From contig JACPLF010000005.1 in the NCBI GenBank assembly GCA_016186645.1, forward strand, positions 109,995-173,994: a stretch of 64,000 nucleotides of DNA. Direction: 5' to 3'. Positions 3,931 through 53,523 of this stretch are shown in pieces. The stretch's first letter is position 1; each line of letters opens with the position of its first letter. The notes beneath the pieces were generated by a model. The model worked only from the letters and a program-made list of their open reading frames with translations. It did not search any database and was not told where the DNA came from. Source of the stretch: Candidatus Levyibacteriota bacterium (lineage in GTDB: Bacteria; Patescibacteriota; Microgenomatia; Levybacterales; UBA12049). A program made the translations under genes and the position numbers.

Positions 3931-4630
3931 GTAAATTAACGGCAAAGATAACGGGATCATGATTTAGTAGCTGGTTCTTGGTCTTTCGTTTCAGAAGTTC
4001 TCTGACAAAGACCAGAAACTAGCGACTAAATATTCTGGCTCTTTGACCCTCCTGCGCTAAAAGCTACGGAAGGGTCAATAAGCAAAAACAAACCGTTAAG
4101 GTTAGAGACGGCATCGCCACTCGAAGCTTTAGCGAAGTGTGGCTCTTTGACAAGTGAGGAGAAGCCCTATACAAAGCTTGCTTCGCGTCGGAGGCTTACA
4201 GTCTCGCGCCCGCGAAGTGCGCTTGTACAGGGTAAATTTTTTAATTTTAAAATCTACTCATAATGCCGATAATGAATGCCTAGGAGATTTTGGCCGAGGA
4301 AGGACGCAGACGGCGGCGATACTCGTTGGGGAGGTGCCATCAACCTTTGATCCAGCGGTTTCCGAATGGAGCAATCCACTCGTCTTTGACGAGGAGCCAC
4401 TCATAAAAATATTACCGCAAGGTTTTATATAGTGTTTGGCAGGGTACGGCGCGAACCGAAACATCCAAGTAGCGCCAGGAAAATAAATCATAGACCCCGT
4501 TAGAACTTTGGTAGTAAAACTTGTTACGTTAAGAAAGATTTTGCTAACTTAACTTGAGAAGAGACTTTATTTCCAGAGTTCTAACGGGGTAGAGATTCCG
4601 TTAGTAGCGGCGAGCGAAAGCGGAACAGTC

Positions 4631-4755
4631 TAAAGCGTGCGTAGCACGCAACAGTCAACCAACAACACTTCGCCTTTGGCGAATTTCAACAAACAACAAA
4701 AATTGTTGTGAGTTGTTTGTTGTAAGTTGAAGGTTGCATGCTGCGCATGCGGTTG
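4631..4755 (+). repeat. IVS-like structured insertion in the 23S 5' domain, copy 1
   Basis: About 85 percent identical to 9214..9333. It contains the hairpins gcgtgcgtagcacgc and caacaaacaacaaaaattgttgtgagttgtttgttg. Confidence 0.6.
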
Positions 4756-4938
4756 CAGGGCAGACGATATTCGATGTATTTTTTGTAGCAGAAGGACCCG
4801 GAATGGTCCCCCAAAGAAAGTGAAAGGCTCGTACGCAAAACAAAAAATACCGATAGTTTGTTCCTAAGTACCATGGAGCACGATAAAACTCTGTGGGAAT
4901 CTGGGGCGTCCACGCTCCAAGACTAAATACCAGAATCT

Positions 4939-4977
<39 letters not shown>

Positions 4978-5562
4978 CACCCCGGAAGGGGAATGAAATA
5001 GAACTGAAATTGTCGGCTGACAAGCAGGCAGAGGAACGTAACGCGCAAGCGTGTACGTTCTGATGCCGTGCCTATTGAAGAATGAACCGGTGAGTTATTC
5101 CCTCACTTTCGTCTAAGCCATTAAGTGGCGCAGGCAAAGTGAAAGCAAGCTCTAATTGAGCATTTTTAAAGTGTGGGATTAGACCCGAAGCTGGGTGAGC
5201 TAACCTTGGGCAGGGTGAATCCCGATGAAAATCGGGAGGAGGCCCGAACTCGTGACTGTAGCAATAGTCTGAGATGACCTGAGGTTAGGGGCAATATGCC
5301 AATCGAACCCAGAGATAGCTGGTTCTCCCCGAAATATATTTAGGTATAGCGGTCGCCATGTAGTTGCCTGGGGTAGAGCACTAAATGGTTCGCGGCAACG
5401 CAAGTTGTCGTAACCAATTAAACTCCGAATACAGAGCAACATTGGGCGACTAGTCAGACTGGTCGGGCTAAGCCGATGGGTCAAAAGGGAAACAACCCAG
5501 ACTCCCAATTAAGGTCTCTAAATAAAAGCTAAGTTTAGAAGGAAGTCAAGTTCCATAGACAA

Positions 5563-5593
<31 letters not shown>

Positions 5594-6488
5594 TAAAGAA
5601 AGCGTAACAGCTCACTGGCGGATTGGAATTTGGCGCCCAAAATTTAACGAGGATTAAGCTTTTTACCGAAGTTGGAGGAACGTACACTTTTGCTTTGCAA
5701 AATGTTACGTTCGGTAGGGGAGCGTTCTAAGTGCAGCGAAGTCGTGGTGTAAACCATGGTGGAGTGCTTAGAAGTGAGAATGCCGGTATGAGTAGCGAGT
5801 GTCTGGTGAGAAACCAGGCCGCCGAAAACCCAAGGTTTCCTCCGCAATGTAAATCAGCGGAGGGTTAGTCGGTCCTAAGGGTGTTCCTCTTTGGTCCTAA
5901 GGGTGTTCCTCTTTTGGGGAGTAGCCCGATGGGCAAGTCGTTGAGATTCGACTACAAATTATACATATTCTAAGGGGAAGTCGAAGATAGAAGAATCAAG
6001 GCCAGCTAAGCTGGCTTTAAGTAGTGAAATAGGATGAAATGGTAAATACGTTCATCTGTTTAATTAAGCTACGATGAAAACCCTGAGAGCAATCGAAGGG
6101 TATTTGATCGCTTTTAACTTCCGAGAAATATCCCATTAGTTCCATTCATTTGTGAAAAAATGTATATTTTACCGTACCGACATCCGACACAGGTGGGTTG
6201 GTCGAGAAGACTAAGGCGAACGGGAGAAAGATGGTCAAGGAACTCGGCAATAAATCTGGGCGTAACTTTTGGAGATGCCCTACCAGCTACCATGCGGTAC
6301 CTGGTTGCAACAAAAGATTATTAAGCGACTGTTTATCTAAAACACAGGTCCATGCAAAACTGAAAAGTTAAGTATATGGGCTGAAGCCTGCCCAGTGCTG
6401 GTAAGTCAAAAGTTGAGAATCAGGCTCGCAAGAGTCAAAGTTTTTAACTTAAGCTCCAGTAAACGGCAGCAGTAACTATAAGAAATTG

Positions 6489-7190
6489 TAGTTGTAAAAG
6501 TCGACTAAATGCTGGAAAATCCGTACCGTGATTCTGCTTTACAGAACAAACGGTTGCAGTATCTGACGCTACCATGTATTATGGTAATAATGCGATCAGT
6601 GCGGACAATCAGCAGGAAAGACTTGACGAAGAAAGAGCTAGGATTTTTCCTTGCTGGGTTTGTTGAAGGAGAAGGAAGTTTTAATGTCTCGTTACGGCGC
6701 AAGCCTGACTATAGACTCAAATGGCAAGCGGTAATGAGTTTTAATGTTTCGCAAAAAGACCCTACCTTATTAAAAATTTTAAAGGAGGAGCTAAAATGCG
6801 GAATTATTAAAACACGTAAAAGAGACAATCTATATTCCTTTGATGCAACAAATCCTAAGGATCTAATCCAGAAAGTCATTCCATATTTCAAAAAATATCC
6901 AGTTCAATCTGATTCTAAAAAGAATAATTTTTCTATTTTTTGCAAGATAGCAAAATTAATGGAAAAAGGGGAACACAGAAATTTGGCTGGATTAAGGTTA
7001 ATCCTAAAACTTCGAGAGAAAATAAACATTGGAGCAGGAAGAACAAGGAAATATGATATAGATGATGTTTTTTCTAAGTCAGGAATCCTCAGAGACTATA
7101 CGTCGACGTCCCGCTCAGCGGGACATGATATAGTCCGACCTCATGAACGATCATGAGACTCTGTAATCAATCAGAGTACCGCGATTAGCG
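6489..7190 (+). mobile_element. 23S intron 1, inserted after GTAACTATAA (E. coli ~1917); carries a LAGLIDADG homing endonuclease ORF
   Basis: The exon sequence breaks after gtaactataa and resumes with ctgttctaaggtagcgaa. The intervening sequence encodes the endonuclease. Confidence 0.7.
6509..7156 (+). CDS. LAGLIDADG homing endonuclease (intron-encoded)
   Basis: Contains LAGFVEGEGSF and a second, degenerate motif. The probable start is the ATG at 6590 (MRSVRTISRKDL...). Confidence 0.75.
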   Translation: MLENPYRDSALQNKRLQYLTLPCIMVIMRSVRTISRKDLTKKELGFFLAGFVEGEGSFNVSLRRKPDYRLKWQAVMSFNVSQKDPTLLKILKEELKCGIIKTRKRDNLYSFDATNPKDLIQKVIPYFKKYPVQSDSKKNNFSIFCKIAKLMEKGEHRNLAGLRLILKLREKINIGAGRTRKYDIDDVFSKSGILRDYTSTSRSAGHDIVRPHERS

Positions 7191-7232
7191 GGATAACAAT
7201 GTGAACTGTTCTAAGGTAGCGAAGCCCCTTGT

Positions 7233-7496
7233 CGGGTGATGGAAAAAGCCCGAAAACTGGCTTAAAACGGTGAAGCCCTACCATGTTGCATCGTACAAGA
7301 CGATGTGTAAAAATAGAGGGTGATACCGTGGGTAAGACTTTCTTTTAAAAGAGAGAACCTGTAACGACTTGTCCCGCCAAAGGCGGGACAGAGACATAAT
7401 TTTTATGTCTAATACGCCAGCATTTAGTATAGATTTCATTGGACATTATCTTTCAGGAGATGCCGAAGCCCTATAAAAATCGGGCAGAAGGACAAT
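7233..7496 (+). other. Highly divergent, shortened 23S domain IV/V segment (corresponds to E. coli ~1936-2440)
   Basis: Only loose similarity to the canonical exon sequence. The universally conserved AAGTTCCGACCTGCACGAATGG and GACGGAAAGACCCCGTGAACCTTTACTATA blocks are not found. A weak match (catttagtatagatttcattggacattat) and gtctggtgggcag follow. Confidence 0.4.
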
Positions 7497-7787
7497 GTCT
7501 GGTGGGCAGTTTAACTGGGACGGTTGACTCCTACAATGCAACGGAGTCGTACAAAGGTTGGCTAGCTCCGGATGGAAATCGGAGTGATAGTGCAAAGGCA
7601 TAAGCCAGCTTGACTGCGAGACTTACAAGTCGAGCAGGGACGAAAGTCGGTCTTAGTGATCCTCAGTAGCATAGTGGTATGCTCTGAGCTTAACGGATAA
7701 AAGCTACCCTGGGGATAACAGGCTTATCGCATCCAAGCGTTCACAGCGACGATGCGGTTTGGCACCTCGATGTCGGCTTAACACAAA

Positions 7788-8186
7788 TAGTGTTTGGGCC
7801 CTTCAGTAAATAATTACTGTTGTAAATTTGGCTAATAACGGTGGACTCCTAATTGACTAAGTAAAGTTTCTCAAGTTATGATAAAGTCAATGGACAATAC
7901 CGTGGGAAGTCGCATTTTTCAGAACACTCGGAAGACTCGGTTTTCCAGGAACATCAGAATATCTGGCTATCAGATTGTCTGAGCCTCTGGTTTACTGAGT
8001 AATAATCTGAGTTTTCTGAAATATTGTTGACCCCGTAACGACTGATTCTTTAGCAAACTAAATTGAACCCTTAGTTTGTAATAGATGAGATTCCAGTTTT
8101 TGGAATCATACGCCGAACCCCTCTCTTTTTTCAAAAAAGTGGGGGTGATGATATAGTCTACACTTCTAGTAACAGAAGATTCATGT
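7788..8186 (+). mobile_element. 23S intron 2 (ORF-less), inserted after GATGTCGGCT; it contains repeat R1
   Basis: The exon resumes with catcgcatcctggggg...gggtcgggctgttcgcccgttaaagcggtacgcgagctgggttcagaacgtcgtaagacagt. Confidence 0.65.
7921..8022. repeat. R-family MITE-like element, copy R1 (inside 23S intron 2)
   Basis: Carries the terminal motifs cagaacactcggaagactcgg and ctgagttttctgaaat shared with R2 to R5. Confidence 0.6.
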
Positions 8187-8212
8187 GCATCGCATCCTGG
8201 GGGTGGAGAAGC

Positions 8213-8272
<60 letters not shown>

Positions 8273-8280
8273 AAGACAGT

Positions 8281-9028
8281 AGACCTATAGCGTTAATTAC
8301 GCTATTAAATGAGCTGTCTATAAATCTAGCTATTTGCTGGAAACTCCGAGTATCTTCAACTACTTGACAAATGACTTATCGTAGAGATACGATATCTCTA
8401 TGTCTAGTGATAATGTTGGAAGTGCGGACAATCAGCAGGCAGCTGGGAAAGAAATTTCTAATGAGTATTTAGCAGGATTCACCGATGGTGAAGGGTGTTT
8501 CTATGTGGGATTTGGTAAGAGAAAAGACCTGCCGCTTAAATGGCAAGTAATTACCGAATTTCATGTAAGTCAAAATCCAGGCGGGAAAAATGTTTTGGAA
8601 GAGTTCAGAGAAAGGCTTGGTTGTGGCTATTTAAAGCCCAATCATGCAAAGAGCTTGAAAGACAAAACTTGGATTTTAATTGTGAAAGATAGAAAGGATT
8701 TAAAAGAAAAACTTATTCCTTTTTTTCAGCAACACAGATTGCACACAAGCAAACAAAAAGATTTTGAAATCTTTGTAAAAGTGCTTGAAAAAATTGAAAC
8801 GGGAAAGCATTTAACTAAAGATGGTTTTAAACAAATCGTTGAATTAGTTTTTGCCACTACCAGGGTAACAAATAAAAGATATTCAAAAGAATCACTTCTT
8901 TCCTAGAGCCTCAGAGACTACATGCTAGATGATGCATTGAATAGTGCGTCAAAGATATAGTCCGAACTGCATGGCGACATGTAGAGCGTATCAGAAATGC
9001 TACGTCATTCGTAAGAATGTAACATATT
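8281..9028 (+). mobile_element. 23S intron 3, inserted after GTCGTAAGACAGT (E. coli ~2595); carries a second LAGLIDADG homing endonuclease ORF
   Basis: The exon resumes with cggtctctatccagga...cccctagtacgagaggac. Confidence 0.7.
8400..8906 (+). CDS. LAGLIDADG homing endonuclease (intron-encoded)
   Basis: Contains LAGFTDGEGCFYV. It shares the 19-nt string agtgcggacaatcagcagg with the first endonuclease gene, in a different reading frame. Confidence 0.75.
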   Translation: MSSDNVGSADNQQAAGKEISNEYLAGFTDGEGCFYVGFGKRKDLPLKWQVITEFHVSQNPGGKNVLEEFRERLGCGYLKPNHAKSLKDKTWILIVKDRKDLKEKLIPFFQQHRLHTSKQKDFEIFVKVLEKIETGKHLTKDGFKQIVELVFATTRVTNKRYSKESLLS

Positions 9029-9160
9029 GTCGGTCTCTATCCAGGACAACCGATTGAGATTTGAGGAGATTCGCCCCTAGTACGAGAGGACTGGGATGAG
9101 GAAATCCCTGGTGTGCCAGTTGTTCTTACAAGAGCATCGCTGGGTAACTATATTTCCAAC

Positions 9161-9193
<33 letters not shown>

Positions 9194-9213
9194 GTCTCCA
9201 ATATTAGATCTCT

Positions 9214-9333
9214 AGCGTGCGTAGCACGCAACAGTCAACAATCAACACAGCCGATTCAATCGGCTTTTCAACAGACAACAAAATTGTTGTAAGTTGTTTG
9301 TGGTAAGTTGAAAGTTGCATGCTGCGCATGCAT
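9214..9333 (+). repeat. IVS-like structured insertion in the 23S 3' domain, copy 2
   Basis: Homolog of 4631..4755. Compensatory hairpin changes (cttcgcctttggcgaa versus cagccgattcaatcggct) show it is a structured RNA. Confidence 0.6.
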
Positions 9334-9563
9334 AAGCCCCTTGTAGATCACGAGGTTGATAGGCAGGCAGTGGAAGAACCGCAAGGTTTTAAGCTTACCT
9401 GTACTAATGGTTGAACGAGTAGATTTAAAAATTACCGTGCCCCGCAAAAAGTGCTCTTCGAGCCCGCTACGAATAGTAGCTAAGGCGAAAAGTAAACTTT
9501 GTGGGGTATTCTCCTCACATGTCAGAGAGTCAATTGTACATTGATTTTTGAAGAAAGTAATTC

Positions 9564-10769: not shown

Positions 10770-11960
10770 ATGCAAACTCAATTAACAAGTAACAAGTCAC
10801 AAGTAGCAAGTAGCTCCAAGAAGGCTACTTCCATGGCGGATTTAATGAAGAAAGTGGCAGCCGCTAAAACTCCGTTTATCTCTCCTCACAAAGGCGATAT
10901 GCTCATGGGAACCATTACCAAATTAACATCTGGTGAAATTTTGGTGGATATAAATGCCAAGACAGAAGCTGTTGTTTTGGAAAAAGAAAGGCAGATTCTT
11001 AATAAAATTCTTTCCTCTTTCAAAGTAGGGGACAAGATTCAAGTTCAGGTTCTCAATCCTGAATCGGATTTTGGTTATCCGGTTGTATCTCTCAGACGAT
11101 CAGTCGGAGATATTACTTGGGATAGGCTTAGCAAATTACAAAAAGCTCAGGAGGCAGTTGAAGTAACTTTGGATATGGCAACCAAAGGCGGATTTTTAGC
11201 AACCACAACAGATGGAATTTCCGGATTTTTGCCAAATTCCCACACCTCAAGTCTTGAAAATCCCCAAGGATTGATTGGTAAAAAAATAAAAGTTGTAGTT
11301 CTGGAAACAAATCGCGAACTTAACAAGATTATCTTTTCCCAAAAACAAGTCATGGGTCCGGCAGACTTTCAGAAGCTAATTAAGAATCTAAAGGTTGGAC
11401 AAAAAATTGATGCAGTTGTATCCAATGTGGCCCCATTTGGTGTGTTTCTTTCTATCCCAGTTGACCCCGAAGGATCTTCCCGTTCGCCTTCAGGTACTAT
11501 TCGTACACGGCTCACGGAGCGATCTAACGGGGCAGGCTCAGGAAAATTGGCAGAGGGATTTATTCATATTTCTGAAACATCATGGGGAAATGTAGAAAAT
11601 ATTTCAAACCTTTTCAAAATCGGAGACAAAATTACCGGAGTTGTTTTAGGTTTTGACAAAGATTCGAGACGCGTAAATCTTTCTATAAAAAGAACAGTGG
11701 CTGATCCTCTTGAGAAGAAATTTGATGAATTTACAATTGACAAAAAACTCAAAGCAACAATTATCAAAGTTATCTCAACAGGTGTGATTTTGGACCTCGG
11801 AGACAATGTAAATGGATTTATTAAAAAAGAAAAAATTCCGGTTAAAATAACTTACAAAGACGGACAAGAGATTGACGTTACAGTATCCTCAGTTGATAAG
11901 AAAAGACATAGAGTTGAAGTCTCCCCAGTCCTCACGGCGAAGCCGATTGGATATAGATAG
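10770..11960 (+). CDS. rpsA: 30S ribosomal protein S1 (short CPR-type, S1-domain repeats)
   Basis: Several S1-fold repeats (GDKIQVQVLNPE..., ITGVVLGFDKDSRRVNLSIKR). SD-like aaaggtga and a TGTGGTACAAT -10 box lie upstream. Confidence 0.7.
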   Translation: MQTQLTSNKSQVASSSKKATSMADLMKKVAAAKTPFISPHKGDMLMGTITKLTSGEILVDINAKTEAVVLEKERQILNKILSSFKVGDKIQVQVLNPESDFGYPVVSLRRSVGDITWDRLSKLQKAQEAVEVTLDMATKGGFLATTTDGISGFLPNSHTSSLENPQGLIGKKIKVVVLETNRELNKIIFSQKQVMGPADFQKLIKNLKVGQKIDAVVSNVAPFGVFLSIPVDPEGSSRSPSGTIRTRLTERSNGAGSGKLAEGFIHISETSWGNVENISNLFKIGDKITGVVLGFDKDSRRVNLSIKRTVADPLEKKFDEFTIDKKLKATIIKVISTGVILDLGDNVNGFIKKEKIPVKITYKDGQEIDVTVSSVDKKRHRVEVSPVLTAKPIGYR

Positions 11961-12083
11961 AATAGACGGTAGATGATAGAATGTAGAAGATAGTAATTGA
12001 AGATGGAAAATAGAAAGTAGAAAACTATCCTCTAACTTCTATTTTCAAAATTCTACCATCAATCTTCTATTTTCTATCGTCAT
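11961..12083. repeat. Intergenic palindromic element, copy C (tagaa/ttcta word type); it fills the rpsA-radA gap up to the radA ATG
   Basis: Homologous along its length to 47747..47873. Its arms are mutually reverse-complementary. It ends with the motif ctaacttctattttcaaaattctacc. Confidence 0.65.
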
Positions 12084-13583
12084 ATGAAATCAAAGGTTTC
12101 ATTTGTCTGTCAGGAATGCGGTTATGATTCTCCCCAGTGGCTTGGAAAATGTCCTGAATGCGGAATGTGGAACAGTTTAAAAGAAATTTCCCACTTCGTT
12201 GAAACTTCGCGGGACAAGCAAAATTCAATAGGAAATATCAATAAAAATATAACGCCGAAAAGACTTTCGGAAATAAAGTTTGAGAGAAAACAAAGATTAT
12301 TAACAGGGTTTTCGGAATTGGATACTGTTTTGGGCGGGGGAATTGTGAAGGGAAGCGCAGTTTTACTTGCCGGTGATCCGGGCATTGGTAAGTCAACTCT
12401 GTTATTGCAGCTGGCGTTAAATTTAGCATCAACCTCTTCTCAGAAAACTCAGAATACTCAGCATATCAGAAAATCTGATAATCAGAAGCTCAGACAGTCT
12501 GGCTTACTGAGTTTTCCGAGTGTTCCGAATGTTTTATATATTTCCGGGGAAGAGTCTGAAGAACAAGTCAAATTAAGAGCAGATAGAATTAATCCTTCGG
12601 CTCGCTCAGGATCCAAAACTCATTCAAATTTATTACTTCTCTCAAATACAAATACTGATTTGGTTTGTGGAATAATTGTTAAAGTTAAACCAATGCTTGT
12701 GATTATAGATTCAATCCAAACAATGGAATCGGAAAATGTTTCCGGTCTTTCCGGGTCTGTTGGGCAGGTTCGTTATTCTGCTTTTCAATTTATAAAAATC
12801 GCCAAAACATTTGGGATTCCAATTATTATGGTAGGTCATGTAACAAAAGAAGGAATGGTTGCCGGACCTATGGTTTTATCCCACATGGTTGACACTGTTT
12901 TATTTTTGGAGGGAGAAAAATTTACCGCAACCAGAATTTTGAGAAGTCTGAAAAATAGATTTGGTCCGGTTGACGAAGTTGGAATTTTTGCAATGGAAGG
13001 TGTTGGGGTAAAAGAATTAAACAGTCCCGAACAACTTTTTTTATCAAAACACAATGATAAGACTATTTCAGGAAGTATTTTATCTGTCACCATGGAAGGT
13101 ACAAGAGCATTCTTAATTGAAATTCAAGCACTTGTTTTGTCATCGAAAATTCCAATTCCAAGAAGAGTTGCATCCGGCATTGATTACAAAAGATTGGAAC
13201 TTTTATTGGCGGTTTTGCAAAAACATTGTAATATCCCGCTTTCGGGAATGGATGTTTTTGTAAATGTGATAGGTGGAATAAAACTTTCAGATCCGGCAAC
13301 TGATTTGGCAATTTGCCTTGCGATTATATCGAGTTTCAAAAATATTAATTTATCCCAAAAAGTTGGGATTGGAGAAGTAGGGCTTTTGGGAGAGCTTCGT
13401 AAAGCCAGTTCTTTGGAAAAACGCATAAAAGACGCGCGAAAATTGGGGTTTCGCGATATAATAAGTTCGGACAAATTCAAGACTTTAAAACAAGTTGTTA
13501 ATAGTTTAAGCAATGACCCTCCTTCATTAAAATTACGGAAGGGTCATGCCTCGAAGCTTGAGAAAGAGGCAGAAGGTAATTAA
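12084..13583 (+). CDS. radA: DNA repair protein RadA/Sms
   Basis: N-terminal C4 zinc ribbon, Walker A GDPGIGKST, the KNRFG motif and a Lon-like C-terminal domain. Confidence 0.9.
   Translation: MKSKVSFVCQECGYDSPQWLGKCPECGMWNSLKEISHFVETSRDKQNSIGNINKNITPKRLSEIKFERKQRLLTGFSELDTVLGGGIVKGSAVLLAGDPGIGKSTLLLQLALNLASTSSQKTQNTQHIRKSDNQKLRQSGLLSFPSVPNVLYISGEESEEQVKLRADRINPSARSGSKTHSNLLLLSNTNTDLVCGIIVKVKPMLVIIDSIQTMESENVSGLSGSVGQVRYSAFQFIKIAKTFGIPIIMVGHVTKEGMVAGPMVLSHMVDTVLFLEGEKFTATRILRSLKNRFGPVDEVGIFAMEGVGVKELNSPEQLFLSKHNDKTISGSILSVTMEGTRAFLIEIQALVLSSKIPIPRRVASGIDYKRLELLLAVLQKHCNIPLSGMDVFVNVIGGIKLSDPATDLAICLAIISSFKNINLSQKVGIGEVGLLGELRKASSLEKRIKDARKLGFRDIISSDKFKTLKQVVNSLSNDPPSLKLRKGHASKLEKEAEGN
12441..12532. 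repeat. R-family element, copy R4, inserted in-frame in radA (encodes ~33 extra aa, STSSQKTQNTQHIRKSDNQKLRQSGLLSFPSVPN)
   Basis: Nearly identical to the reverse complement of R3 (cagaaaactcagaatactcag ... tactgagttttccgagtgttccgaa). The insertion sits between Walker A and the downstream RadA core, where other bacteria have none. Confidence 0.65.
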
Positions 13584-14365: not shown

Positions 14366-15178
14366 TCATGTTGTCATCCTGAACGAAGTGAAGGATCTAG
14401 GTTTATTCCAAGAGATTCTTCGCGTTGCTCAGAATGACATTGGGATAAAACTGAGAAGAGATAGGAATCCCTGCCCAAGACTCCTATCTCATCTCAATTA
14501 ACAAAACTTTTTTTGTATAAAAAAATCAAATCAAATCAATGCAAACGATTAAGTTTAGCCTCATTCACTTTTCTTGACAACAATTATTAATTTTGCTATT
14601 AACTAGTTGACAATTAGTTTTATCCTGCCTGAAAGACTAACTGTCGAATTTCATAAGAGCATTGCTTATCGTACCTGAACTTATATACTGAGTAACGAAA
14701 GCGATGCTCTTTTTTACAAAAGTGCTACCGGGATATTTATTCCTTTTTCAATTAATTTCTTGAATTGATCCCGTCCCTGTTTTACAAGTATTTCCATCTT
14801 GTAATCTGAAACTGTCTTCTGAGATACCTTTTTCTTCCGCCAGCTGGCGGATTTAAATCCGAATATCATACCTAAGGGGATTTTACCATACGTTGTCAAG
14901 TGTGTCAAACCTATAGCATTCTGCAGAGCAGAATTGGCATAACCTAGAGTAAAAAATGTTATGTTTGGATTGCAAAATCAATATAATTTTTTTAAAGAAA
15001 AAAATGTGGATAACTCGGGGAAATTAAAATTGACCTAATTAACCTAATTGCCCACGTCAAACGTGGCAGGTCTAATTTCTAAGTTGGGACTTAGCCCGCC
15101 TTGCCCGTTTCGATTCAACGAGGCGAGCCGGCGAGGCAGAGATTTGATTAGGTTAATTAGAAATTAGGAATTAGAAAT

Positions 15179-15970
15179 TTATCTGGTAGATACTTTTGTG
15201 AAAGGGATGAGAAGTGAGATTAATGAGGGTTTGTAATTATAATTGCTTTTTGAAAGGAGCCAAAGTTTTATGAAGGAAATAATGTTATTTCTCAAATCAT
15301 AGAAATATTCTTTCGGATTTTTCCTGTGATAATGAAGATATTCATCCAAATTCGCAAATTTACCATAGGGAAGAAGCTTTATAAATAAATCGGAATAGAT
15401 GAAAGGCTCAGTTGAATCGCTAAATTTCAATAAATCTTTAGGCATTAGATTTTTGTTGACCATGAGAGTTTCAAATTGCATTGTTATGCCATGAAGAGGG
15501 GATTTGTAGACGAATTGATTTTCTTTTGGAAAGAAACTTTTTCCAATCAACCTTCCTTTATCGTTAATAAATCTGCATTGGGCGCCAACTGCTACAACTC
15601 CGGGATTCCCCGAAATAAACTCAACTTGCTTTTTGATTCTTTGACGGGAGCTTATATCTTTCGCATCCATAAAGGCAATGTAGTCTCCTTTGGCTCGTCT
15701 TAAAAGCCTGTTTAGGGTTATAACTATTCCATATCTTTTTATATTTCTATAAACCCTAACTTTTTTGCCCCGCCCTGAGCCGGTCGTTGGGTATTTTTTA
15801 GCAAAGGACTTAAGGATTTTGAGGGATGAATCGGTTGAGAAGTCATCAATCGCAATGATTTCGATCTGCCGATAGCTTTGTCCAACAAGACTTTTTAGGC
15901 AATCTGCAAGAAAGCGTTCGCAATTATGGACTGGCAATAAAATAGAAACTAATGGTTTGTGATTAATCAT
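15179..15970 (-). CDS. Family 2 glycosyltransferase
   Basis: VSILLPVHNCERFL...IEIIAIDDFSTDSS matches the GT2 N-terminal motifs. Confidence 0.75.
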   Translation of the reverse strand: MINHKPLVSILLPVHNCERFLADCLKSLVGQSYRQIEIIAIDDFSTDSSLKILKSFAKKYPTTGSGRGKKVRVYRNIKRYGIVITLNRLLRRAKGDYIAFMDAKDISSRQRIKKQVEFISGNPGVVAVGAQCRFINDKGRLIGKSFFPKENQFVYKSPLHGITMQFETLMVNKNLMPKDLLKFSDSTEPFIYSDLFIKLLPYGKFANLDEYLHYHRKNPKEYFYDLRNNIISFIKLWLLSKSNYNYKPSLISLLIPFTKVSTR

Positions 15971-16358: not shown

Positions 16359-17082
16359 ATTTTTTTCGAAGTATCCAACCCAAAATTCCTGTTGGAATTA
16401 GAGAAAATAATATCAAAGATTCAGGACCTGTTGGAGGAGCGGTTTTTATGGGAACCGGGGAGAGGACAGGAAATCCTTGTTTGATGATTTTAGCTGGAGT
16501 TGTACTCTTTTTTTCTATGCAAAATTGACTGTTGTCTTGCCCGACAGCAGGATCAGGCACGAAAGCTTTTACTTGATTTACTAAACAAATAACATTTTCT
16601 GAAAAGGAAAGTTGATTCGTATCAACAATTCTTCCAAAGATATTAAAAGTTCTTGTTTCCGAAGGCATTAGATTGTCAGCGTCAAAGGCTAACGTTCTAG
16701 TGGTGCTGTCAAAACTACCGGGTCCCGAACTAAAACTAACGAACTGAGGGAATATGTCTTGTATATGGGCCTTTTCAATAACAGTTTTTCTATTATTTGT
16801 AATTAGAACTTGAAATGTTACGATAAAATCAGATTGATATTTTGCATCATTTGGGCCTAAATTGTCAACCATCTTATTTGTGTCAGGATTTAGCACTTTG
16901 CTGTCAACAGTTATGTCTTGGGTTTTTATACAAGTTGTCCCGCCGCCGTATATGGCTTGACAAGGCTCTTCCGCAAACGCCTTTTTTGAAAATTGAAAAT
17001 TGCTCGCCTCGCTGCGAAGCGGGAAAATTGAAAATTGAAAATTGAAAAAAATAATTACTAATACTGTAAATAGCGTTTTCAT
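16336..17082 (-). CDS. Secreted cell-surface protein with a C-terminal PTG-TM-basic tail, a candidate sortase substrate
   Basis: Signal peptide. The C-terminus reads KTAPPTGPESLILFSLIPTGILGWILRKKSK. The N-terminal region carries an inserted heptamer-repeat/hairpin element. Confidence 0.5.
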   Translation of the reverse strand: MKTLFTVLVIIFFNFQFSIFPLRSEASNFQFSKKAFAEEPCQAIYGGGTTCIKTQDITVDSKVLNPDTNKMVDNLGPNDAKYQSDFIVTFQVLITNNRKTVIEKAHIQDIFPQFVSFSSGPGSFDSTTRTLAFDADNLMPSETRTFNIFGRIVDTNQLSFSENVICLVNQVKAFVPDPAVGQDNSQFCIEKKSTTPAKIIKQGFPVLSPVPIKTAPPTGPESLILFSLIPTGILGWILRKKSKQPLSL

Positions 17083-17236: not shown

Positions 17237-18535
17237 ATGGTAAGCAAAAAAACCACGCCTCAAAAGGATGAGACTCCGGCAAAATCTGTTGATGAGATAA
17301 TTGGTTCTCCAAAGGAGAATGTTTCTGTAAAACCAGAGCCCTCTGTTATTCCGGCACAAGCTTTACCTATTCAACCAGCGCCAATTTATCCTCAGCCTGT
17401 GTCTTCTTTCGGTTATCGACAAGAACCTACGGTTACTGTTGATGTTTCGGGAATTTTGGATATTCAGCCCGAAGGCCATGGATTTTTAAGACCCAAATTT
17501 ATCCCATCCCAAAGAGATGTTTATATTTCTCAATCCCAAATAAGAAGATTCATGCTTCGTCCTGGAGATTTGATTAAGGGTGTGGGAAGACCTCCAAAAG
17601 ACACAGAGCGATATTTTGGGCTTTTGAAAGTTGAAACAGTTAATGACATGCCAGCGGACAGCTCTCTAAATAGACCATATTTTGATGATCTGACTGCTGT
17701 TTATCCCAAAAAACAAATAACTCTTTCAACCGGTAAGCTGCCTTTGTCAACCCGCATGATTGATCTTATCTCGCCGATTGGATTTGGGCAAAGAGGAATG
17801 ATCGTGTCGCCTCCAAAAGCCGGGAAAACAACAATTCTTAAAGAAATTGCAGCAGGAATTGCGCAAAATTATCCCAAAGCGCATCTCATGGCAGCATTAA
17901 TTGGAGAACGACCTGAAGAAGTCACAGATATTGCGCAATCTGTAAAAGGAGATGTGGTCGCATCGCACTTCGACGAACCGCCAGATGCCCAGACAAGAGT
18001 TGCGGAAATTACTTTGGAGAGGGCAAGAAGACTTGTTGAGATGGGGACAGACGTTATTATTCTTCTTGATTCAATAACACGTTTGGCAAGAGCTTATAAT
18101 TTGTCGGTCGCCCCTTCGGGTCGAACCCTATCGGGAGGATTTGACCCGGCAGCATTGTGGCCTGCGAAAAAATTCTTCGGAGCGGCGAGAAACTGCCAGG
18201 AGGGCGGATCTCTGACAATTATTGGAACCGCTTTGGTTGATACAGGTTCCAGAATGGATGATTTGATCTACGAGGAGTTTAAAGGAACCGGTAATTTGGA
18301 ATTGCATTTGGACAGAAGATTGGCAGACCGAAGAATATTCCCCTCGATTGATATTGCACGTTCAGGGACTCGTCAGGAAGAATTATTATTATCTGAAAAA
18401 GATTTGAAAAAGGTTTCTACAATGAGAAGGATGATTGATATGCTTGGACCTGAAGAACGAACAAGTATATTTGTGGAAAGGCTTTCAAAAACCGCTACCA
18501 ACGAAGAATTCCTAGAGAGTTTGGGAAAGGGATAA
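17237..18535 (+). CDS. rho: Transcription termination factor Rho
   Basis: RNA-binding OB domain, Walker A PPKAGKTT and Q/R loops. 432 aa. Confidence 0.9.
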   Translation: MVSKKTTPQKDETPAKSVDEIIGSPKENVSVKPEPSVIPAQALPIQPAPIYPQPVSSFGYRQEPTVTVDVSGILDIQPEGHGFLRPKFIPSQRDVYISQSQIRRFMLRPGDLIKGVGRPPKDTERYFGLLKVETVNDMPADSSLNRPYFDDLTAVYPKKQITLSTGKLPLSTRMIDLISPIGFGQRGMIVSPPKAGKTTILKEIAAGIAQNYPKAHLMAALIGERPEEVTDIAQSVKGDVVASHFDEPPDAQTRVAEITLERARRLVEMGTDVIILLDSITRLARAYNLSVAPSGRTLSGGFDPAALWPAKKFFGAARNCQEGGSLTIIGTALVDTGSRMDDLIYEEFKGTGNLELHLDRRLADRRIFPSIDIARSGTRQEELLLSEKDLKKVSTMRRMIDMLGPEERTSIFVERLSKTATNEEFLESLGKG

Positions 18536-18576
18536 TCTTTTAAGGTGTCATGCTGAACTAGTTTCAGCATCTCAAA

Positions 18577-19429: not shown

Positions 19430-19599
19430 TCAAATTTATCTCCCAAACAACTCTTCTTACCAAAAGAACTTTTGCCGAGAAACTAGGCATTTGCAGAGTT
19501 TACCTAGATGCTAAGGAAATTGTAGATTGATTTATATCAAACGAAGAATTCCTCGAGAGTCTGGGAAAAGGCTAATTACAGAGAATTAAGATTTACGAT

Positions 19600-19974
19600 T
19601 TAAGAATTAAGAATAGATTTTGTCTTCTGAATAAACCCTTGTAATAATTGATGAGTAAAATTTGCCTGTTTAACTAGATCATCTAAGTCTTTTTTGTTGA
19701 GATATCCCACACCTCTAGCAATAAGAATAAAATTCTTAAGTTCTGTTAATGATCCTTGAGCAGTAAAATAAAATTGAAGTTTTTCTTTATATGAATGTCT
19801 GCCAAAACCCTCTGCGATATTTGCTGTTATTGATGCCGCCGATCTTCTCATCTGATCGATCAAAGAATACATCTCTTGTTTCGGAAAGCCTTGTGTAATT
19901 TTATAAACAAGCAGTACTAATTTATGGCCTTCCTGCCAGACTTTCAAGTCTGTAAAAGACTTAATAGTGCTCAT
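19600..19974 (-). CDS. Four-helix-bundle protein (23S rRNA IVS protein / S23-like family)
   Basis: DLKVWQ...QMRRSAASITANIAEGFGR...AQGSLTEL matches the family signature. It is flanked by inverted 'gatttaagaat' repeats. Confidence 0.7.
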   Translation of the reverse strand: MSTIKSFTDLKVWQEGHKLVLLVYKITQGFPKQEMYSLIDQMRRSAASITANIAEGFGRHSYKEKLQFYFTAQGSLTELKNFILIARGVGYLNKKDLDDLVKQANFTHQLLQGFIQKTKSILNS

Positions 19975-20054
19975 TCTTAAATCTTACATCATAATTCTTA
20001 AATCTCCAAAAAGTTGCTTTTTGGATCCCTTTTTGCTACCATTTTTTCTCAACC

Positions 20055-25464: not shown

Positions 25465-28400
25465 TTAGTTCACAATAAGCCAGTTGAAAGGGATTGGGTT
25501 TTTGTTGGGGGATTGGACGCCGACAGTAAACTCCGCAGGTAATTGGCGCATTAAAAATGGCGATTGAGCGCTGGGCGTTCCCACAGGAGTTATATAAATG
25601 ACTGACTCGTTGGTTACAAGAGCGTTTTTGATAGTAAGTTCTGCGTAATAGGGAGCGATATTAGCAACCCCTGCTGAAGAACTTGCTATTGCCTCTGTTG
25701 CAGAAACAGCCAATACAGGCTGGACAAGGCTGAAGTTAAGTTTTGCAAAAGTACCGGAACCTGAGGAAATTAAATCGCCCTTTTGATTTATAGATAAAAC
25801 ACCAGACCCGCTTGCATTATTTACAACCAGATCTGAAGTCGGGAGAGGAGAAATAATATTTACAGCAAGTTTGCCTAAAACAGTTAAATCTCCTTGAGTC
25901 GAAATATTTCCGTGGGTATCAATATAAACAAGTCCTCCCATAATTGAAAGTCCGCCTTGCCTTAAGCTTTGCAAAGATAAATCAGTTCCTAATGTTTCTA
26001 TAGAATTTTGCGTAATAAACATTGTTCCTCCTATTGAAATATTTCCTACGACTGAAAGATCGGATAGAGATGTTGATCCAAATACCATAAGTCCTTGATT
26101 GAAAAGTGCCTGTTCTGCTTGAAGATTAGGTACATAAGCAATTTGAGCCGAGAAAGATGCGACATCTATGTAGTTAGATGAGAGATGAGATGTTAGAAAT
26201 GAAAAAGCTCTTAATGTGCCGCTTATTGATGCATTTTCAAACTGACCGTCAAGAGCTGATAACTGACCGCTGAATGATGCATCGCCTTCATTATTAATAG
26301 TAGTGATTGCAGAGCCGCTTGAGTTTTGAATTATGAATTGTGAATCATGAATCTCTGCCGATGGTGTTGCCAATTTGACGATTAATGATTTACCTAGAGG
26401 TGAAATAATATTGGCTGAGACCTGATCAGTTCTTATAATCGGAGAAATTATTCCTGCTTGCCCCCCGAAGTCTTGACGAAGGGGGGATTCTTGAATCACG
26501 TCAACAATATAATCCCTTAGATTCTGGCCGTTAACTATTATATTATCCGAGGTAACAATCAGTGAGTTTGCAATTATTTCTTGAGCGTTAAGAAGGCCGG
26601 TTTTAATATTAGCAGCTACAACTTTAAAAAATCCTCCGACATTACTTAAAGTTTCATTTTGAGAATCAACAGAATAGCCATTGGATCCTGTTTTATGAAT
26701 AATCAGGTCGCCATTATTAGCTAAATACGCGCCCGGATCAAACCAGGAGATATTTGCAAAAGTATTGATCTTTACAATCTTAATGATGTTTGGTTTTAAC
26801 GGAACATTAGGAAAGCCATCCTTGCTTCTATACTCTTTGCTATCAGGATCATAGAAGCCTACTACTTTTCCCTCATCTATAATGTCTAAATTTTCCAAAG
26901 CCTTTCCGACAATTTGTCCTGCTTTTGTTGCTTTTACTGCTACTCCGGGGATATCAGATGATGCTAACGCATCGCCGGCTTTAATCGTTCCGTTAGAGAT
27001 AGAGACGAGAGTATCAACTTGTCCGATAAGACCAACTGCTATTGAGCTATCACCAAGATTTTCTCCTCCCAGAAATGCTGGTCGCTCGGATGCAATACCC
27101 AAAATTTTACCATTATTATTATCACATGGAACAACAAAGCCATTATTTAGACAGACAACAGAGCCAAATTCTATTTTTAGATATTTATCTTTTTTGAAGT
27201 ATTCAGCAAAGTCAGCGACACCGGATGTTGCATAAGTCACGCCTTTCCCGCCACTTCCTTGAATAGATCCGACAATTCCAATTCCTGCTGTTTGAAAGCT
27301 CACAAAGTGATTTGTGCTGGCAACTGCGGTAGTTGAAGTATTGCCCAGTTTTATAACAAGACCATCCGCATCTGTTCCAGAACTTGTATTGTAAATTTGA
27401 GCAGCAGCGGTTGCTGATTGAGAATCTTGAATGTCTAGTTTTGATAATGGTGTCGTTGTTCCAATTCCTACGTTTCCCGTATTGATCCATGAATTATTTC
27501 CGCTAGTTCCGCTAAACTTAATCAAAGCAGAAGAAGTAGCAGTTGCTCCTAGTAGGATATCATCTGATATATTGGTTGGGCTGAGCGCAGCCGAAGCCCT
27601 TTGCCACGGTCCAAATGTTCCTGTTGAGGCAGAATATATGTTGTCAATATAAGCATTGTCCCAAGGCAGAGAAGCAGACCCTAGATTATTGGTTCCGCTT
27701 GTTCCGATCGGAACAAGACTTGAATCTTGTGCGACTCGACCGGTGAAGGTAATAGTGTCAGTGGCTGCATCTCCCAGCGTAACGCTTCCCTGTATATTGG
27801 CTGTTGCATTTCTTATAGTTATGGTGCCTGTTGACGCTCCAAGAACGAGTGTTGTTGCTGCTCCTCCAACATTTAAGGTAGTAACAGTTGAATTCAGAAG
27901 GTTGAAAGTTGTGGCTGTACTTGTCATATCTCCGCCGTTTATTCCAAGATCTCCGGCAAACAATCCAGCCCCATCGCTTTCAACACCAAATTTGGCAATA
28001 CCGGATGTACTGGCGCTAATCAGACTCCCTATTGAATTCTGATTGATATGAAAGGCTGATTGTGCACTTGTTGTTGCCAGTATAGCCACGTTATCATCGA
28101 ACTCTACCGCCCCTTTCATAAATGATACGTTGCTATTGTTTGTGCTATTCTGAATGGGTTTTGAAAGATCTATTTTTCCGACACCATCAGGCACGATTTC
28201 CACCCTGCTATTACTGCCTGGGACTGTTGTCAAAGACAATATGCTTCCGGAAAGCACGAATTGGCCGCCGATGGTCTGAAAAGTGTGCGCTTTTGAGCCT
28301 GCAATGCTAAGATTGCCCGAGGAATCCAAAGCCAAGACGACATTACTTACTTTGGTTGAATTTGTGATGGGTTCAAGTCCTTGTAATGTTTCAGCATTAC

Positions 28401-29892
28401 TTGCAAAAGGCACTGTAGCCAACTCTTGACGCGGACTAAGCTCTGGACCGCTCCCAATAGTAATTCCCAAGAAAAGCTGCGAATTCTGGCTAAAAAGAGT
28501 ATCAGGAATAGGGGTAGTCTTGCCAAGAAACACTGAGAATATCCCATCTGAATCAGGTTCTATCGAGTTGCTTTCCTGCCAAAGAAAGGCCGCACCTGAA
28601 GCATTTTGGTCATTATAGATAGAAAAGAGAATATTTGTCGCATTGGTTATAGGATTATCAGATGAGTCGGTCAGTTTTCCCTGAAAAGAAAGAATTCGGG
28701 GGGGAGCAAATGAAGCTGCAGCAAGTGTCGCTCCTTCTTTTTGGCTTTGTGCAAAAAGACTATCATATGTTCCAAAACCAAGCGCTGCAGCTACGATAAT
28801 AAGGATCGCAAAATGGAAATAATGGGTAAATGAGTATGAGTGATACTTTTTGTACCAGTTGGGTCGTACATGCCGAATATAATGCCAGACTCTTTTGTGG
28901 TTTGGTAAATAGCGTGTTGAAACGGTGAGGGGGGCATAAAACTCCTTCTTAATATTTGAAACCGGAATTAATGACTCAGAGTCAAATTTGGATTTCTTGA
29001 ATACTCTTTTTCCCGATGCTTTCCAAAATAAATACTGTGTACTCTCAACAGTTTTGACAAGCGGCAATATAAAGATGGCATCAAAGAGGAAATCAGCGCC
29101 ATTTATGAGCTTTTGCGTTAATCTCAGAGGTGGAAAAGAAGATCTGTTCGGAATACTCGGAAGACTCGGTGCGTCAGATTGCTCGCCTCGCTCAAGCTTC
29201 GGCGAAGAGGGTCTTATTATCTGATAGTCAGAATTTCTGATGGTCTGGATTTCGGAGTCTTCTGAGTTTTCTGAAATTAATTTCTGGTTTTTTGCCCAAG
29301 CAATATAATTCCTTAAAGACGAAAGTTTTCTATTGATAGTCCTGGGAGAAAATTTAGCCGCAATTAGTCTTTGCTTGTATTCTTCAATGGTTGTGTAATT
29401 GACTTTGTCTAGTAAATTTCTTTCCGTGACAACCCATGCGTATTTGATAAGCGTTACTTCCTCAAGCCACACGAAGAAACTTTTGATATCGTTGATGTAG
29501 TTTTTTATAGTAAGATTAGATTTTTTATACTCGTAAAGATAGCTTTTGAAATTCCTAAGCATCCATGGATCCGCCTCCGCCAAGGCTTCGGCGGACACAG
29601 TCCTTTTTTCAAGTGGATCTTGTGAGATTATTTTGTTTGTTTGGAGCAACTTAAAAAACTTACGCAAAGAGGAAAAATGTCTCTCCATGGAGCTTGGAGA
29701 AAGACTCCTTGCTTTTTTGTACTGATCTAAGATGACAAGGTTAACTTTTGATGGATCAAAAGGGGAATTAAATTCTTTTTCGAACCAGTTTATAAATTGT
29801 CCGATATCAGCTTTATAATTTTTGAAAGTAGAAAGAGATGGTGTATCTTTTTGATTTATCAGGAAATTAAGGAATTGTTGTAATAAATTCAT
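25465..29892 (-). CDS. Giant (1475 aa) cell-surface protein: N-terminal integrase-SAM-like repeats, one TM helix, then a long Ser/Thr/Gly/Asn-rich extracellular region
   Basis: Three core-binding-like repeats (FKNYKADIGQFINWF / IKNYINDIKSFFVWL / INRKLSSLRNYIAWA). TM helix HYFHFAILIIVAAALGFGTY. No recombinase catalytic domain. Confidence 0.6.
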   Translation of the reverse strand: MNLLQQFLNFLINQKDTPSLSTFKNYKADIGQFINWFEKEFNSPFDPSKVNLVILDQYKKARSLSPSSMERHFSSLRKFFKLLQTNKIISQDPLEKRTVSAEALAEADPWMLRNFKSYLYEYKKSNLTIKNYINDIKSFFVWLEEVTLIKYAWVVTERNLLDKVNYTTIEEYKQRLIAAKFSPRTINRKLSSLRNYIAWAKNQKLISENSEDSEIQTIRNSDYQIIRPSSPKLERGEQSDAPSLPSIPNRSSFPPLRLTQKLINGADFLFDAIFILPLVKTVESTQYLFWKASGKRVFKKSKFDSESLIPVSNIKKEFYAPLTVSTRYLPNHKRVWHYIRHVRPNWYKKYHSYSFTHYFHFAILIIVAAALGFGTYDSLFAQSQKEGATLAAASFAPPRILSFQGKLTDSSDNPITNATNILFSIYNDQNASGAAFLWQESNSIEPDSDGIFSVFLGKTTPIPDTLFSQNSQLFLGITIGSGPELSPRQELATVPFASNAETLQGLEPITNSTKVSNVVLALDSSGNLSIAGSKAHTFQTIGGQFVLSGSILSLTTVPGSNSRVEIVPDGVGKIDLSKPIQNSTNNSNVSFMKGAVEFDDNVAILATTSAQSAFHINQNSIGSLISASTSGIAKFGVESDGAGLFAGDLGINGGDMTSTATTFNLLNSTVTTLNVGGAATTLVLGASTGTITIRNATANIQGSVTLGDAATDTITFTGRVAQDSSLVPIGTSGTNNLGSASLPWDNAYIDNIYSASTGTFGPWQRASAALSPTNISDDILLGATATSSALIKFSGTSGNNSWINTGNVGIGTTTPLSKLDIQDSQSATAAAQIYNTSSGTDADGLVIKLGNTSTTAVASTNHFVSFQTAGIGIVGSIQGSGGKGVTYATSGVADFAEYFKKDKYLKIEFGSVVCLNNGFVVPCDNNNGKILGIASERPAFLGGENLGDSSIAVGLIGQVDTLVSISNGTIKAGDALASSDIPGVAVKATKAGQIVGKALENLDIIDEGKVVGFYDPDSKEYRSKDGFPNVPLKPNIIKIVKINTFANISWFDPGAYLANNGDLIIHKTGSNGYSVDSQNETLSNVGGFFKVVAANIKTGLLNAQEIIANSLIVTSDNIIVNGQNLRDYIVDVIQESPLRQDFGGQAGIISPIIRTDQVSANIISPLGKSLIVKLATPSAEIHDSQFIIQNSSGSAITTINNEGDASFSGQLSALDGQFENASISGTLRAFSFLTSHLSSNYIDVASFSAQIAYVPNLQAEQALFNQGLMVFGSTSLSDLSVVGNISIGGTMFITQNSIETLGTDLSLQSLRQGGLSIMGGLVYIDTHGNISTQGDLTVLGKLAVNIISPLPTSDLVVNNASGSGVLSINQKGDLISSGSGTFAKLNFSLVQPVLAVSATEAIASSSAGVANIAPYYAELTIKNALVTNESVIYITPVGTPSAQSPFLMRQLPAEFTVGVQSPNKNPIPFNWLIVN
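29146..29278. repeat. R-family element, copy R2, in-frame within the giant surface-protein gene (encodes a low-complexity linker)
   Basis: Carries gttcggaatactcggaagactcgg ... tctgagttttctgaaatt. Confidence 0.6.
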
Positions 29893-33343: not shown

Positions 33344-33521
33344 AAAACAGAAATTATCACCCTAACACCTAGAACATCTTAGAAATACTACTGGGACGGT
33401 CTTCGGTTTTATAATTAAGTTTTTCACCATTTTACCTTCGGATACATTTAAATCCCAAAAGAACTGTGTTATACTAAATAAAATTTCTAATTACTAATTT
33501 CTAATTTCTAAATAAATCCAA

Positions 33522-47746: not shown

Positions 47747-47873
47747 CTAGACGATAGAAAATAGAGGGTAGAAAATAGTAATTTGAAGATGGACAATAGA
47801 AGATAGATCCATTGTCAATCTTCTACCTTCAAAATTCTACTATCCAGTTTCTATCATCTATCGTCAAAAATTT
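47747..47873. repeat. Intergenic palindromic element, copy D; it fills the gap up to the ndk ATG
   Basis: Homolog of 11961..12083 (gatagaaaatagagggtagaaaatagtaatttgaagatgg ... cttctaccttcaaaattctac ... ctatcgtca). Confidence 0.65.
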
Positions 47874-53521: not shown

Positions 53522-53523
53522 CT

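Follow-up and report, generated by a model that had tools for sequence, protein, structure and literature searches.

ORF-less hairpin repeats in frame in protein genes of a Levybacterial genome and their relatives that carry a PF05635 gene

Rickettsia palindromic elements (RPEs), reportedly described by Ogata et al. in 2000, are dispersed palindromes of ~100–150 nt that lie in frame in housekeeping protein genes and also occur in RNA genes, are tolerated as surface peptides and have no identified transposase. A 64-kb stretch of DNA from Candidatus Levyibacteriota bacterium (contig JACPLF010000005.1), here called the window and used for all position numbers, contains a repeat family that resembles them in these respects and that we denote R. 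A first-pass annotation of the window had compared R to RPEs, and the comparison holds: R is a palindromic repeat that is dispersed and that open reading frames (ORFs) tolerate in frame. R differs from RPEs in its unrelated sequence, its occurrence in an unrelated phylum and its construction from 8- and 9-nt periodic units, and it has longer relatives, denoted composites, in which a gene of the PF05635 family lies between the same arms; to our knowledge, no protein-coding partner is known for RPEs. R works like an RPE, which does not make it one, and membership in the RPE family (RPE-1 to RPE-10) would not be expected in a Levybacterium host. Such Rickettsia-like behaviour does not seem to have been described in this bacterial group: as the first-pass annotation had supposed, a literature search found no account of such elements in the candidate phyla radiation (CPR; Patescibacteria).

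REP and REPIN elements with RAYT transposases, said to go back to work by Nunvar in 2010 and by Bertels and Rainey in 2011, provide a second point of comparison. As with R, a single gene is flanked by cognate hairpins, gene-less hairpins are dispersed, and the repeat family co-varies with the protein clade. RAYT is, however, an IS200/IS605-type Y1 transposase, whereas the candidate partner of R is a four-helix bundle that is not known to be catalytic, and REPs are almost exclusively extragenic while R is often located within ORFs. [quoted passage not shown] Correia elements are intergenic, with 26-bp terminal inverted repeats and a TA duplication, whereas R shows no discernible duplication, has periodic sub-terminal units unlike theirs and yielded no parent of the insertion-sequence type. 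Measured against a strict definition of MITEs, R does stand in the relation of a deletion derivative to a longer parent, but that parent encodes a PF05635 protein and not a transposase. The earlier description of R as MITE-like fits a small, multicopy, ORF-less repeat with terminal inverted repeats; a MITE in the strict sense is not shown, as we could discern no target-site duplication and found no transposase partner.

In architecture, the ORF-bearing intervening sequences (IVSs) of 23S rRNA genes are as near to R as RPEs or Correia elements are. In the IVSs of Leptospira, Coxiella and Brucella, stem-forming inverted repeats surround a ~120-aa ORF of the same family, PF05635, a likeness that applies to the composites; the R copies of the window have no ORF. 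In 23S rRNA, a classical IVS takes the place of the tetraloop of helix 9, 25 or 45 and is excised from the precursor by RNase III with no religation; the window copy R1, by contrast, is housed by a group I intron around position 2500, and composites are located in the loops of 16S and 23S introns and in ordinary spacers. The R family also differs in its abundant ORF-less derivatives, some of them inside protein genes, and in a protein under strong purifying selection, whereas the S23p protein of Coxiella is reported as probably not made. ORF-bearing 23S IVSs have been proposed to be mobile elements with the ORF as mobility component, according to a passage of PMC4990558 that cites Ralph and McClelland (1993), and the R family makes this 30-year-old idea, that the ORF of rRNA intervening sequences serves their spread, testable. 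ORFs annotated as 23S_rRNA_IVP are already listed among CPR rRNA insertion sequences (PMC11270868), in whose text the words 'inverted repeat' and 'palindrom' were not found.

A pattern scan of the window for the 24-nt 5′ arm of R, TTCRGAAYACTCGGAARACTCRGT, yielded matches at 7918(+), 12529(−), 29147(+) and 53523(+), where none are expected by chance (100 shuffles). The 3′ arm, ..CTGAGTTTTCTGRAA (pattern ..AGTnTTCTGAGTTTTCTGRAA), lies 53–91 nt from the 5′ arm, a spacing that fits all four copies. An nhmmer profile built solely from 25 R copies of other genomes returned exactly these four (E-values 6e-23 to 4e-17), and no further window match even at E ≤ 10 with filters off. We denote the copies R1 (7918–8022, +, E = 3.9e-17), in the 23S rRNA gene within a group I intron; R2 (12438–12529, −, E = 2.3e-20), in frame in radA; R3 (29147–29277, +, E = 1.4e-17), in frame in a 1475-aa ORF; and R4 (53523–53622, +, E = 6.4e-23), in the spacer of convergent genes. 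The first-pass annotation had located these four exactly or to within 3 nt and had rightly given the radA copy as inverted relative to R3, but it counted five copies, where arm patterns and profile find four, and took three to be in frame in protein genes, where only R2 and R3 are.

Alignment of the four copies with MAFFT shows conserved ends and variable interiors (mean column identity 67%), and each copy folds into a single long hairpin (−40 to −52 kcal/mol, z = −4.5 to −6.8 versus shuffled sequences; R1, −45 kcal/mol, z = −6.7; R4, −43 kcal/mol, z = −6.8). The arms consist of two tandem 9-nt units, RGAANACTC, and in the interior 8-nt units follow one another, their TCRGA core turning into TCYGA at the midpoint, so that the hairpin forms a ladder of 5-bp helices with small internal loops between them. 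Among genome copies the length ranges from 75 to 192 nt and is set by the number of units. No Rfam family matches any R copy.

The composites span ~0.55 kb and comprise a left arm, a gene for a 121-aa PF05635 protein and a right arm, which repeats the left one as its inverted complement. Two 9-nt RGAANACTC units begin the left arm, followed by a variable number of 8-nt TCRGA-core units, and a −10-like TCTGATAnnAT lies between this arm and the gene. A composite minus its ORF is a hairpin of 75–190 nt, and this is what R is: the inverted-repeat element without its PF05635 gene. R arms around a 121-aa ORF are present in six genomes (L001, L016, L030, L033, L036 and L045; L-numbers denote compared loci or genomes, P-numbers RadA homologues). 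The ORF belongs to PF05635, a family of four-helix bundles named '23S rRNA-intervening sequence protein' (S23p) (E = 4.5e-18), and the profile of the composite protein matches PDB 2gsc, Xanthomonas XCC0516. Composites adjoin at least four different genes (trmH-like, mreB, rnj, cysS) in both orientations. All composites examined have a PF05635 gene between their arms; no transposase was found in these ORF-bearing relatives, and none of those examined has an IS200/IS605-like Y1 transposase gene between its R arms.

A metagenome scan with an alignment of the composite proteins recovered 80 loci. The homologues with at least 58% identity to the query proteins comprise 38 distinct composites, most with an R arm on at least one side (34/38) or on both (30/38) and ten of them in the intron loop, while those with 40–51% identity comprise 16, of which two have an R arm on at least one side, none on both, and four are in the intron loop. 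In place of R arms, the latter group has inverted arrays of CAGTTTT/CGGTTTT, ATCAGTG and ATCGGAAAA units. Arm unit type tracks protein clade, inside introns and outside alike. The composite protein is functional and under strong purifying selection, with a dN/dS of 0.04–0.12 at dS > 1, and the terminal arms are conserved over the same divergence. The R repeats are now tied to a large orphan protein family, with cognate protein/repeat pairs identified.

The relation between R and the composites is most direct at R1. This copy sits in a peripheral loop of a group I intron (7779–8187, +) that interrupts the 23S rRNA gene between GTCGGCT and CATC, around position 2500 in E. coli numbering, a setting that the first-pass annotation had missed. 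The intron is exactly missing from the syntenic 23S gene of L042 and is flanked on both sides by large-subunit rRNA matches; its Rfam Intron_gpI match (38 bits, E = 1.4e-7) scores under the gathering cut-off of 50. R1 aligns end to end with the arms of the PF05635 composites that L050, L055 and L062 have at this intron position, and in the alignment both R1 and the R copy of L042, likewise in a 23S intron, are intron composites minus ~395 nt of ORF. Ten R-type composites occupy the same intron loop as R1, with the common flanks ATACCGwGGGAAGTCGCA ... TTGTTGACCCCGTAnnGACT, and one composite is found in a 16S rRNA gene, within a group I intron. The 23S rRNA gene of the window (4263–9414) is broken up at least four times; the interruptions include two LAGLIDADG ORFs (6509–7156 and 8400–8906). 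The gene also contains hairpins of CAACAAT/GTTGTAA units at about 4700–4750 and at 9229–9331, which have a 52-nt direct repeat in common (94% identity).

The in-frame copy R2 resides in radA (12084–13583, +), whose 499-aa product is 100% identical to P0001, the RadA of an NCBI 'Candidatus Levybacteria' metagenome-assembled genome (MAG), and has no exact entry in the contig index. R2 lengthens RadA by ~29 aa after the Walker-A helix and before the VLYISGEES strand and encodes the peptide ..SQKTQNTQHIRKSDNQKLRQSGLLSFPSVPN.. in this position. It had been described as an in-frame, lineage-specific insertion after Walker A, as it is, although its length had been put at ~33 aa. The insert is missing from the RadA of S. 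pneumoniae (5lkm) and from ~80 of the 120 closest RadA proteins; it is lineage-specific and not ancestral protein sequence. In an AlphaFold2 model of RadA, of moderate quality (mean predicted local distance difference test score, pLDDT, 67), residues 124–146 have pLDDT < 50 and no secondary structure and are flanked by a helix (103–117) and a strand (150–154), so the insert is predicted to be disordered. When the 38-aa RadA insert was scanned with HMMER against 1.84 billion representatives in full, no match at E ≤ 0.001 came up, and a 41-aa R-peptide query gave no candidate proteins; for short, low-complexity queries such as these, significance is unreachable.

About a quarter of the 120 closest RadA proteins have inserts of 10–50 aa at the same loop, which fall into several unrelated classes, all resembling translated palindromes. 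R-type inserts are present in P0001, P0094, P0111 and P0120, with remnants in P0110 and P0118. Across Levybacteria, the mutually unrelated inserts of palindromic origin at this loop (12400–12440 region) number at least seven and have a scattered distribution on the RadA tree, with examples reading VVLSETKDP..LRSAQNDN, FIVHG..STMNNE and GPAASFPPASAR..RAVGSPS. The loop is either an insertion hot spot or the sole permissive loop of the protein.

On a RadA tree computed without the insert, the insert types are scattered, and the nearest relatives of the window sequence are empty (P0004), of type b (P0002) or of type c (P0003). The radA DNA of the window is 80–95% identical to these nearest relatives and only 50–75% identical to L049 (P0094), with the exception of 12400–12535, the insert and ~25 nt of upstream flank, which is 82–96% identical to L049. 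This switch in identity implies that the history of the insert differs from that of its host radA, and either lateral transfer involving a short recombination tract or homing-like copying is indicated. A double-switch assembly chimera is a less likely account of this tract. For the R family as such, assembly chimerism, which the first-pass annotation had considered, is ruled out: the family is present in many independent Microgenomates assemblies, and the same insert occupies the same radA codon in independent NCBI, ENA and JGI assemblies. Loss can be followed at the same site: L049 retains the full element, L131 lacks the left arm and interior and has the right arm only, and L130 retains just the junction of TCTTT and TCTGAAAG, translated as TSFLK. 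All three keep the flanks of the R allele, unlike those of the empty allele MSSGKET.

Beyond the window, R was sought by an exact match to a 22-nt arm pattern in one genome per species, which gave 45 loci, ~30 of them complete hairpins. By record title, the R-bearing genomes belong to Levybacteria, other Microgenomates, Woesebacteria, Collierbacteria, Curtissbacteria and unclassified Patescibacteria. As a family of hairpins, R is real, old and broadly distributed. A few R-bearing MAGs are labelled Gammaproteobacteria, Nanoarchaeota or Acidiferrales, by record title only. MAGs of rumen Bacteroidales and Clostridia (L006, L017, L026 and L034, with L038 also from Bacteroidales) match the pattern as tandem 9-mers or isolated hits without a hairpin and are regarded as unrelated; in the Bacteroidales these are tandem 9-nt repeats upstream of genes, ACTCGGAAG / ACTCAGAAT, exact to the R arm pattern, and such tandem 9-mers are probably unrelated convergent arrays. 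A phage origin of R was also considered and rejected, there being no arm match in IMG/VR viral contigs.

Long ORFs with at least 40 codons on each side span 16 of the 30 complete copies, 10 in one orientation and 6 in the other. The host proteins include DnaX, YchF, topoisomerase I (TopA), a GalT-like protein, MurD, ribonucleotide reductase (RNR), UvrA, transketolase, DNA polymerase I (Pol I) and an O-antigen-ligase/TPR protein. Orthologous inserts are found across species (L009/L029, L024/L032 and L015/L021); those in TopA, 75 nt in L009 and 99 nt in L029, differ by 24 nt, or three 8-nt units, with the frame kept. Several frames of R are free of stop codons and encode peptides rich in S/E/N/Q/K/D, located in loops or linkers, and the frame survives a change in length of three 8-nt units or of one 9-nt unit; in introns the hairpin merely lengthens a peripheral helix. 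Although genomes of Patescibacteria are tiny and gene-dense, the one studied here tolerates hairpin DNA in RadA, and its relatives do so in DnaX, TopA, UvrA, Pol I, MurD and RNR. As in Rickettsia, selfish palindromes can last by being translatable, and R is a source of lineage-specific protein loops in CPR that explains length heterogeneity of CPR marker proteins and rRNA genes and affects annotation, alignment and binning.

Taken together, we consider it likely that R represents a selfish inverted-repeat element, widespread among Microgenomates/Patescibacteria and with a candidate PF05635 partner, in its MITE-like form without the ORF. Since the type of arm unit goes with the protein clade, the PF05635 protein may bind the units repeated in its own arms, and it could promote insertion or retention of the hairpin, or protect it; spread among genomes would proceed through DNA uptake and homologous recombination via conserved flanks. 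R and the composite occur at many unrelated sites in protein genes, in 16S and 23S group I introns and in spacers, one R insert is common to distantly related radA genes, the hairpin is lost through deletions that end in the terminal arms, and R sites are polymorphic among close relatives. R sites are thus gained, exchanged and lost. Also in favour of this reading, another PF05635 gene, located in the window, has a unit family of its own, with solo arrays in leuS and argS.

Several observations weigh against a selfish element of this kind. We know of no transposition mechanism for PF05635 proteins, and no nuclease or recombinase motif came to light in them, although none was searched for. No target-site duplication or clean empty/filled pair delimits the termini of R: no consistent direct repeat flanks R1–R4 or the composites, and at radA the flanks of the empty allele are unlike those of the filled one. 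The copies R1–R4 have common arms and unlike interiors, which gives no sign of a recent burst in this genome, and an R-type composite is not present in the 64-kb window. The co-variation of arms with protein clade could be simple co-inheritance of a gene and its flanks, the several palindrome families in one RadA loop could mean that the site drives insertion or is the only tolerant loop, and the short tract in common with L049 could in principle be an assembly chimera.

A broader proposal, which we hold only tentatively and regard as rather less probable than a selfish R element as such, is that PF05635 four-helix-bundle proteins are the sequence-specific trans-acting part of a new class of transposase-free mobile hairpins. 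Each protein clade would read its own 7–9-nt unit in inverted terminal arrays, and ORF-less derivatives such as R would have colonised proteins, introns and spacers of Patescibacteria. If true, such a class would also account for the origin of the classical 23S rRNA IVSs. PF05635 proteins are relatives of Avd, the accessory protein of diversity-generating retroelements (DGRs).

Alternatively, R could be a host cis-element under selection, acting as an RNase III processing stem, a terminator or a binding array for a host four-helix-bundle protein, with the in-ORF copies as by-products or exaptations. The position of R4 exactly between convergent stop codons is where a terminator is expected, a long periodic hairpin of differing sequence family occupies the S1–radA spacer in every relative examined, the arms are conserved across dS > 1, and the stems of classical IVSs are RNase III substrates (PMC4990558). 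We nevertheless judge this explanation improbable: more than half of the copies interrupt sequence that codes for housekeeping enzymes, the closest relatives have nothing at the RadA site, where the element decays through deletion, R4 has no T-run, Rfam has no match, and the arms show no pairing strand bias of the kind expected of a transcribed RNA structure. On this last point, the strand that the CGG-containing arm defines does give R1–R4 a fold better by 9–16 kcal/mol, an effect due in part to the use of that arm pattern for the search. When 59 composites were oriented by their ORF, however, the sense strand was more stable in 34 and the antisense strand in 25 (Wilcoxon p = 0.075), with equal G·U counts, so the G·U asymmetry of R1–R4 is no evidence for a function at the RNA level. 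A strand-specific RNA structure of R was accordingly rejected, as other genomes show the opposite stability bias.

Somewhat less probable still is that R is immobile, a small number of ancient insertions that are transferred only by natural transformation and homologous recombination via their flanks and whose interiors are remodelled by slippage and quasi-palindrome correction. The insert and short flank that the window has in common with L049 in an otherwise divergent radA would fit such a history, as would the conservation of orthologous inserts between species, interior differences that amount to whole 8-nt units and the lack of near-identical copies in the window. Recombination cannot, however, seed non-homologous sites, and R or the composite is found in more than 15 unrelated genes, introns and spacers, while the ORF-bearing form adjoins at least four different neighbouring genes. 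Chance low-complexity similarity or assembly artefact, which the short periodic units of the element and the matches of unrelated rumen tandem 9-mers to the 22-nt pattern might suggest, is effectively refuted by the expectation of zero chance matches in the window, by profile E-values of 1e-17 to 1e-23 and by the recurrence of one insert at one radA codon in independent NCBI, ENA and JGI assemblies.

The other two copies of a likely selfish R element in the window differ in context. R3 lies in a surface-protein gene, a 1475-aa ORF (25465–29892, −) with two N-terminal Phage_int_SAM-like domains, and is read on the − strand as ISENSEDSEIQTIRNSD...PSLPSIPN. Its site is a linker that varies in length and sequence across all 37 homologues; none of the 37 has R at this position (0/37), in a linker so hypervariable that no clean empty site can be defined. 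R2 is opposite in strand to R3, and radA to the 1475-aa ORF, so that both genes read the same strand of the element, in different frames. The interior of R3 contains a nested GC-rich mini-palindrome (29175–29210, GCTCGCCTCGCTCAAGCTTCGGCGAAGAG) that is missing from the other copies, which suggests that one palindrome was put into another. R4 occupies the entire spacer between the stop codons of a sortase gene (52820–53521, +) and a gene for a PEGA-domain protein (53623–54822, −), which the first-pass annotation had overlooked; no T-run follows it. That annotation had also placed a divergent copy at about 56650–56800. The region 56620–56796(+) was rejected as a copy of R, with no arm match when three mismatches are allowed and no profile match at E ≤ 10; it is an unrelated insertion of ~48 aa in a WecG/TagA glycosyltransferase ORF (56223–57104), relative to the solved TagA 7mpk, and has a weak fold with only a local 12-bp hairpin.

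Two PF05635 genes are present in the window. The first (19603–19974; Pfam 23S_rRNA_IVP, E = 9e-35) lies within a composite (19582–20005, −), flanked by inverted arrays of AAGATTT/AAGAATT 7-mers at 19975–20005 and 19582–19617. Solo 36-nt arrays of the AAGATTT family are found in frame in leuS (34347–34382, +; RFKIKDLRIKNE), with 86% identity to 19582–19617, and in argS (45207–45242, +; DLRFKIKDLRIE), with 89% identity to it. Both are read in the same frame, ..LRFKIKDLRI.., and replace a variable loop with no lengthening relative to solved LeuS (2v0c) and ArgS. The second PF05635 gene (50054–50653, −; Pfam E = 4.4e-12) has an in-frame interruption of its own, a hairpin built of TAAAGGA units (50221–50349; KGQLKDTKGDIKEK...LFLYRPLTLLYSPL). 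The last 37 nt of rho (18500–18536) are duplicated 1040 nt downstream, at 19540–19576, with 89% identity, and this duplication and the first composite bracket ~1.5 kb between rho and a LysM/M23 peptidase gene, where the spacer of L048 is 51 nt.

Upstream of radA, the S1–radA spacer contains a periodic-unit hairpin of another family (11965–12082; TAGAA-type 7-mers), of which a second copy lies at 47748–47880. In the relatives compared (L046, L047, L048, L049 and L132) this spacer has a long hairpin of 7–8-nt periodic units from families that differ (TAGAA, TTGTTAWA, AATTTCT and CAAAnnT), and the family seen in the window is common to the distant L132 and not to close relatives. Many further hairpins and arrays of 7–8-nt units are found throughout the window, where hairpin scans are noisy and serve for examples only. 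Short arrays with a period of 7 nt number more than 25 and are located within ORFs and at the borders of genes (for example 10779–10812, 15155–15179, 17023–17048, 31544–31576, 33482–33511, 36080–36116 and 47445–47475), and the arrays at 15155–15180 and 33481–33506 are 96% complementary. A class distinct from the periodic-unit hairpins is a 49-nt palindrome, CATTTAAC..GCGATCGC..GTTAAATG, with five intergenic copies at 3050, 18943, 57195, 62000 and 62767.

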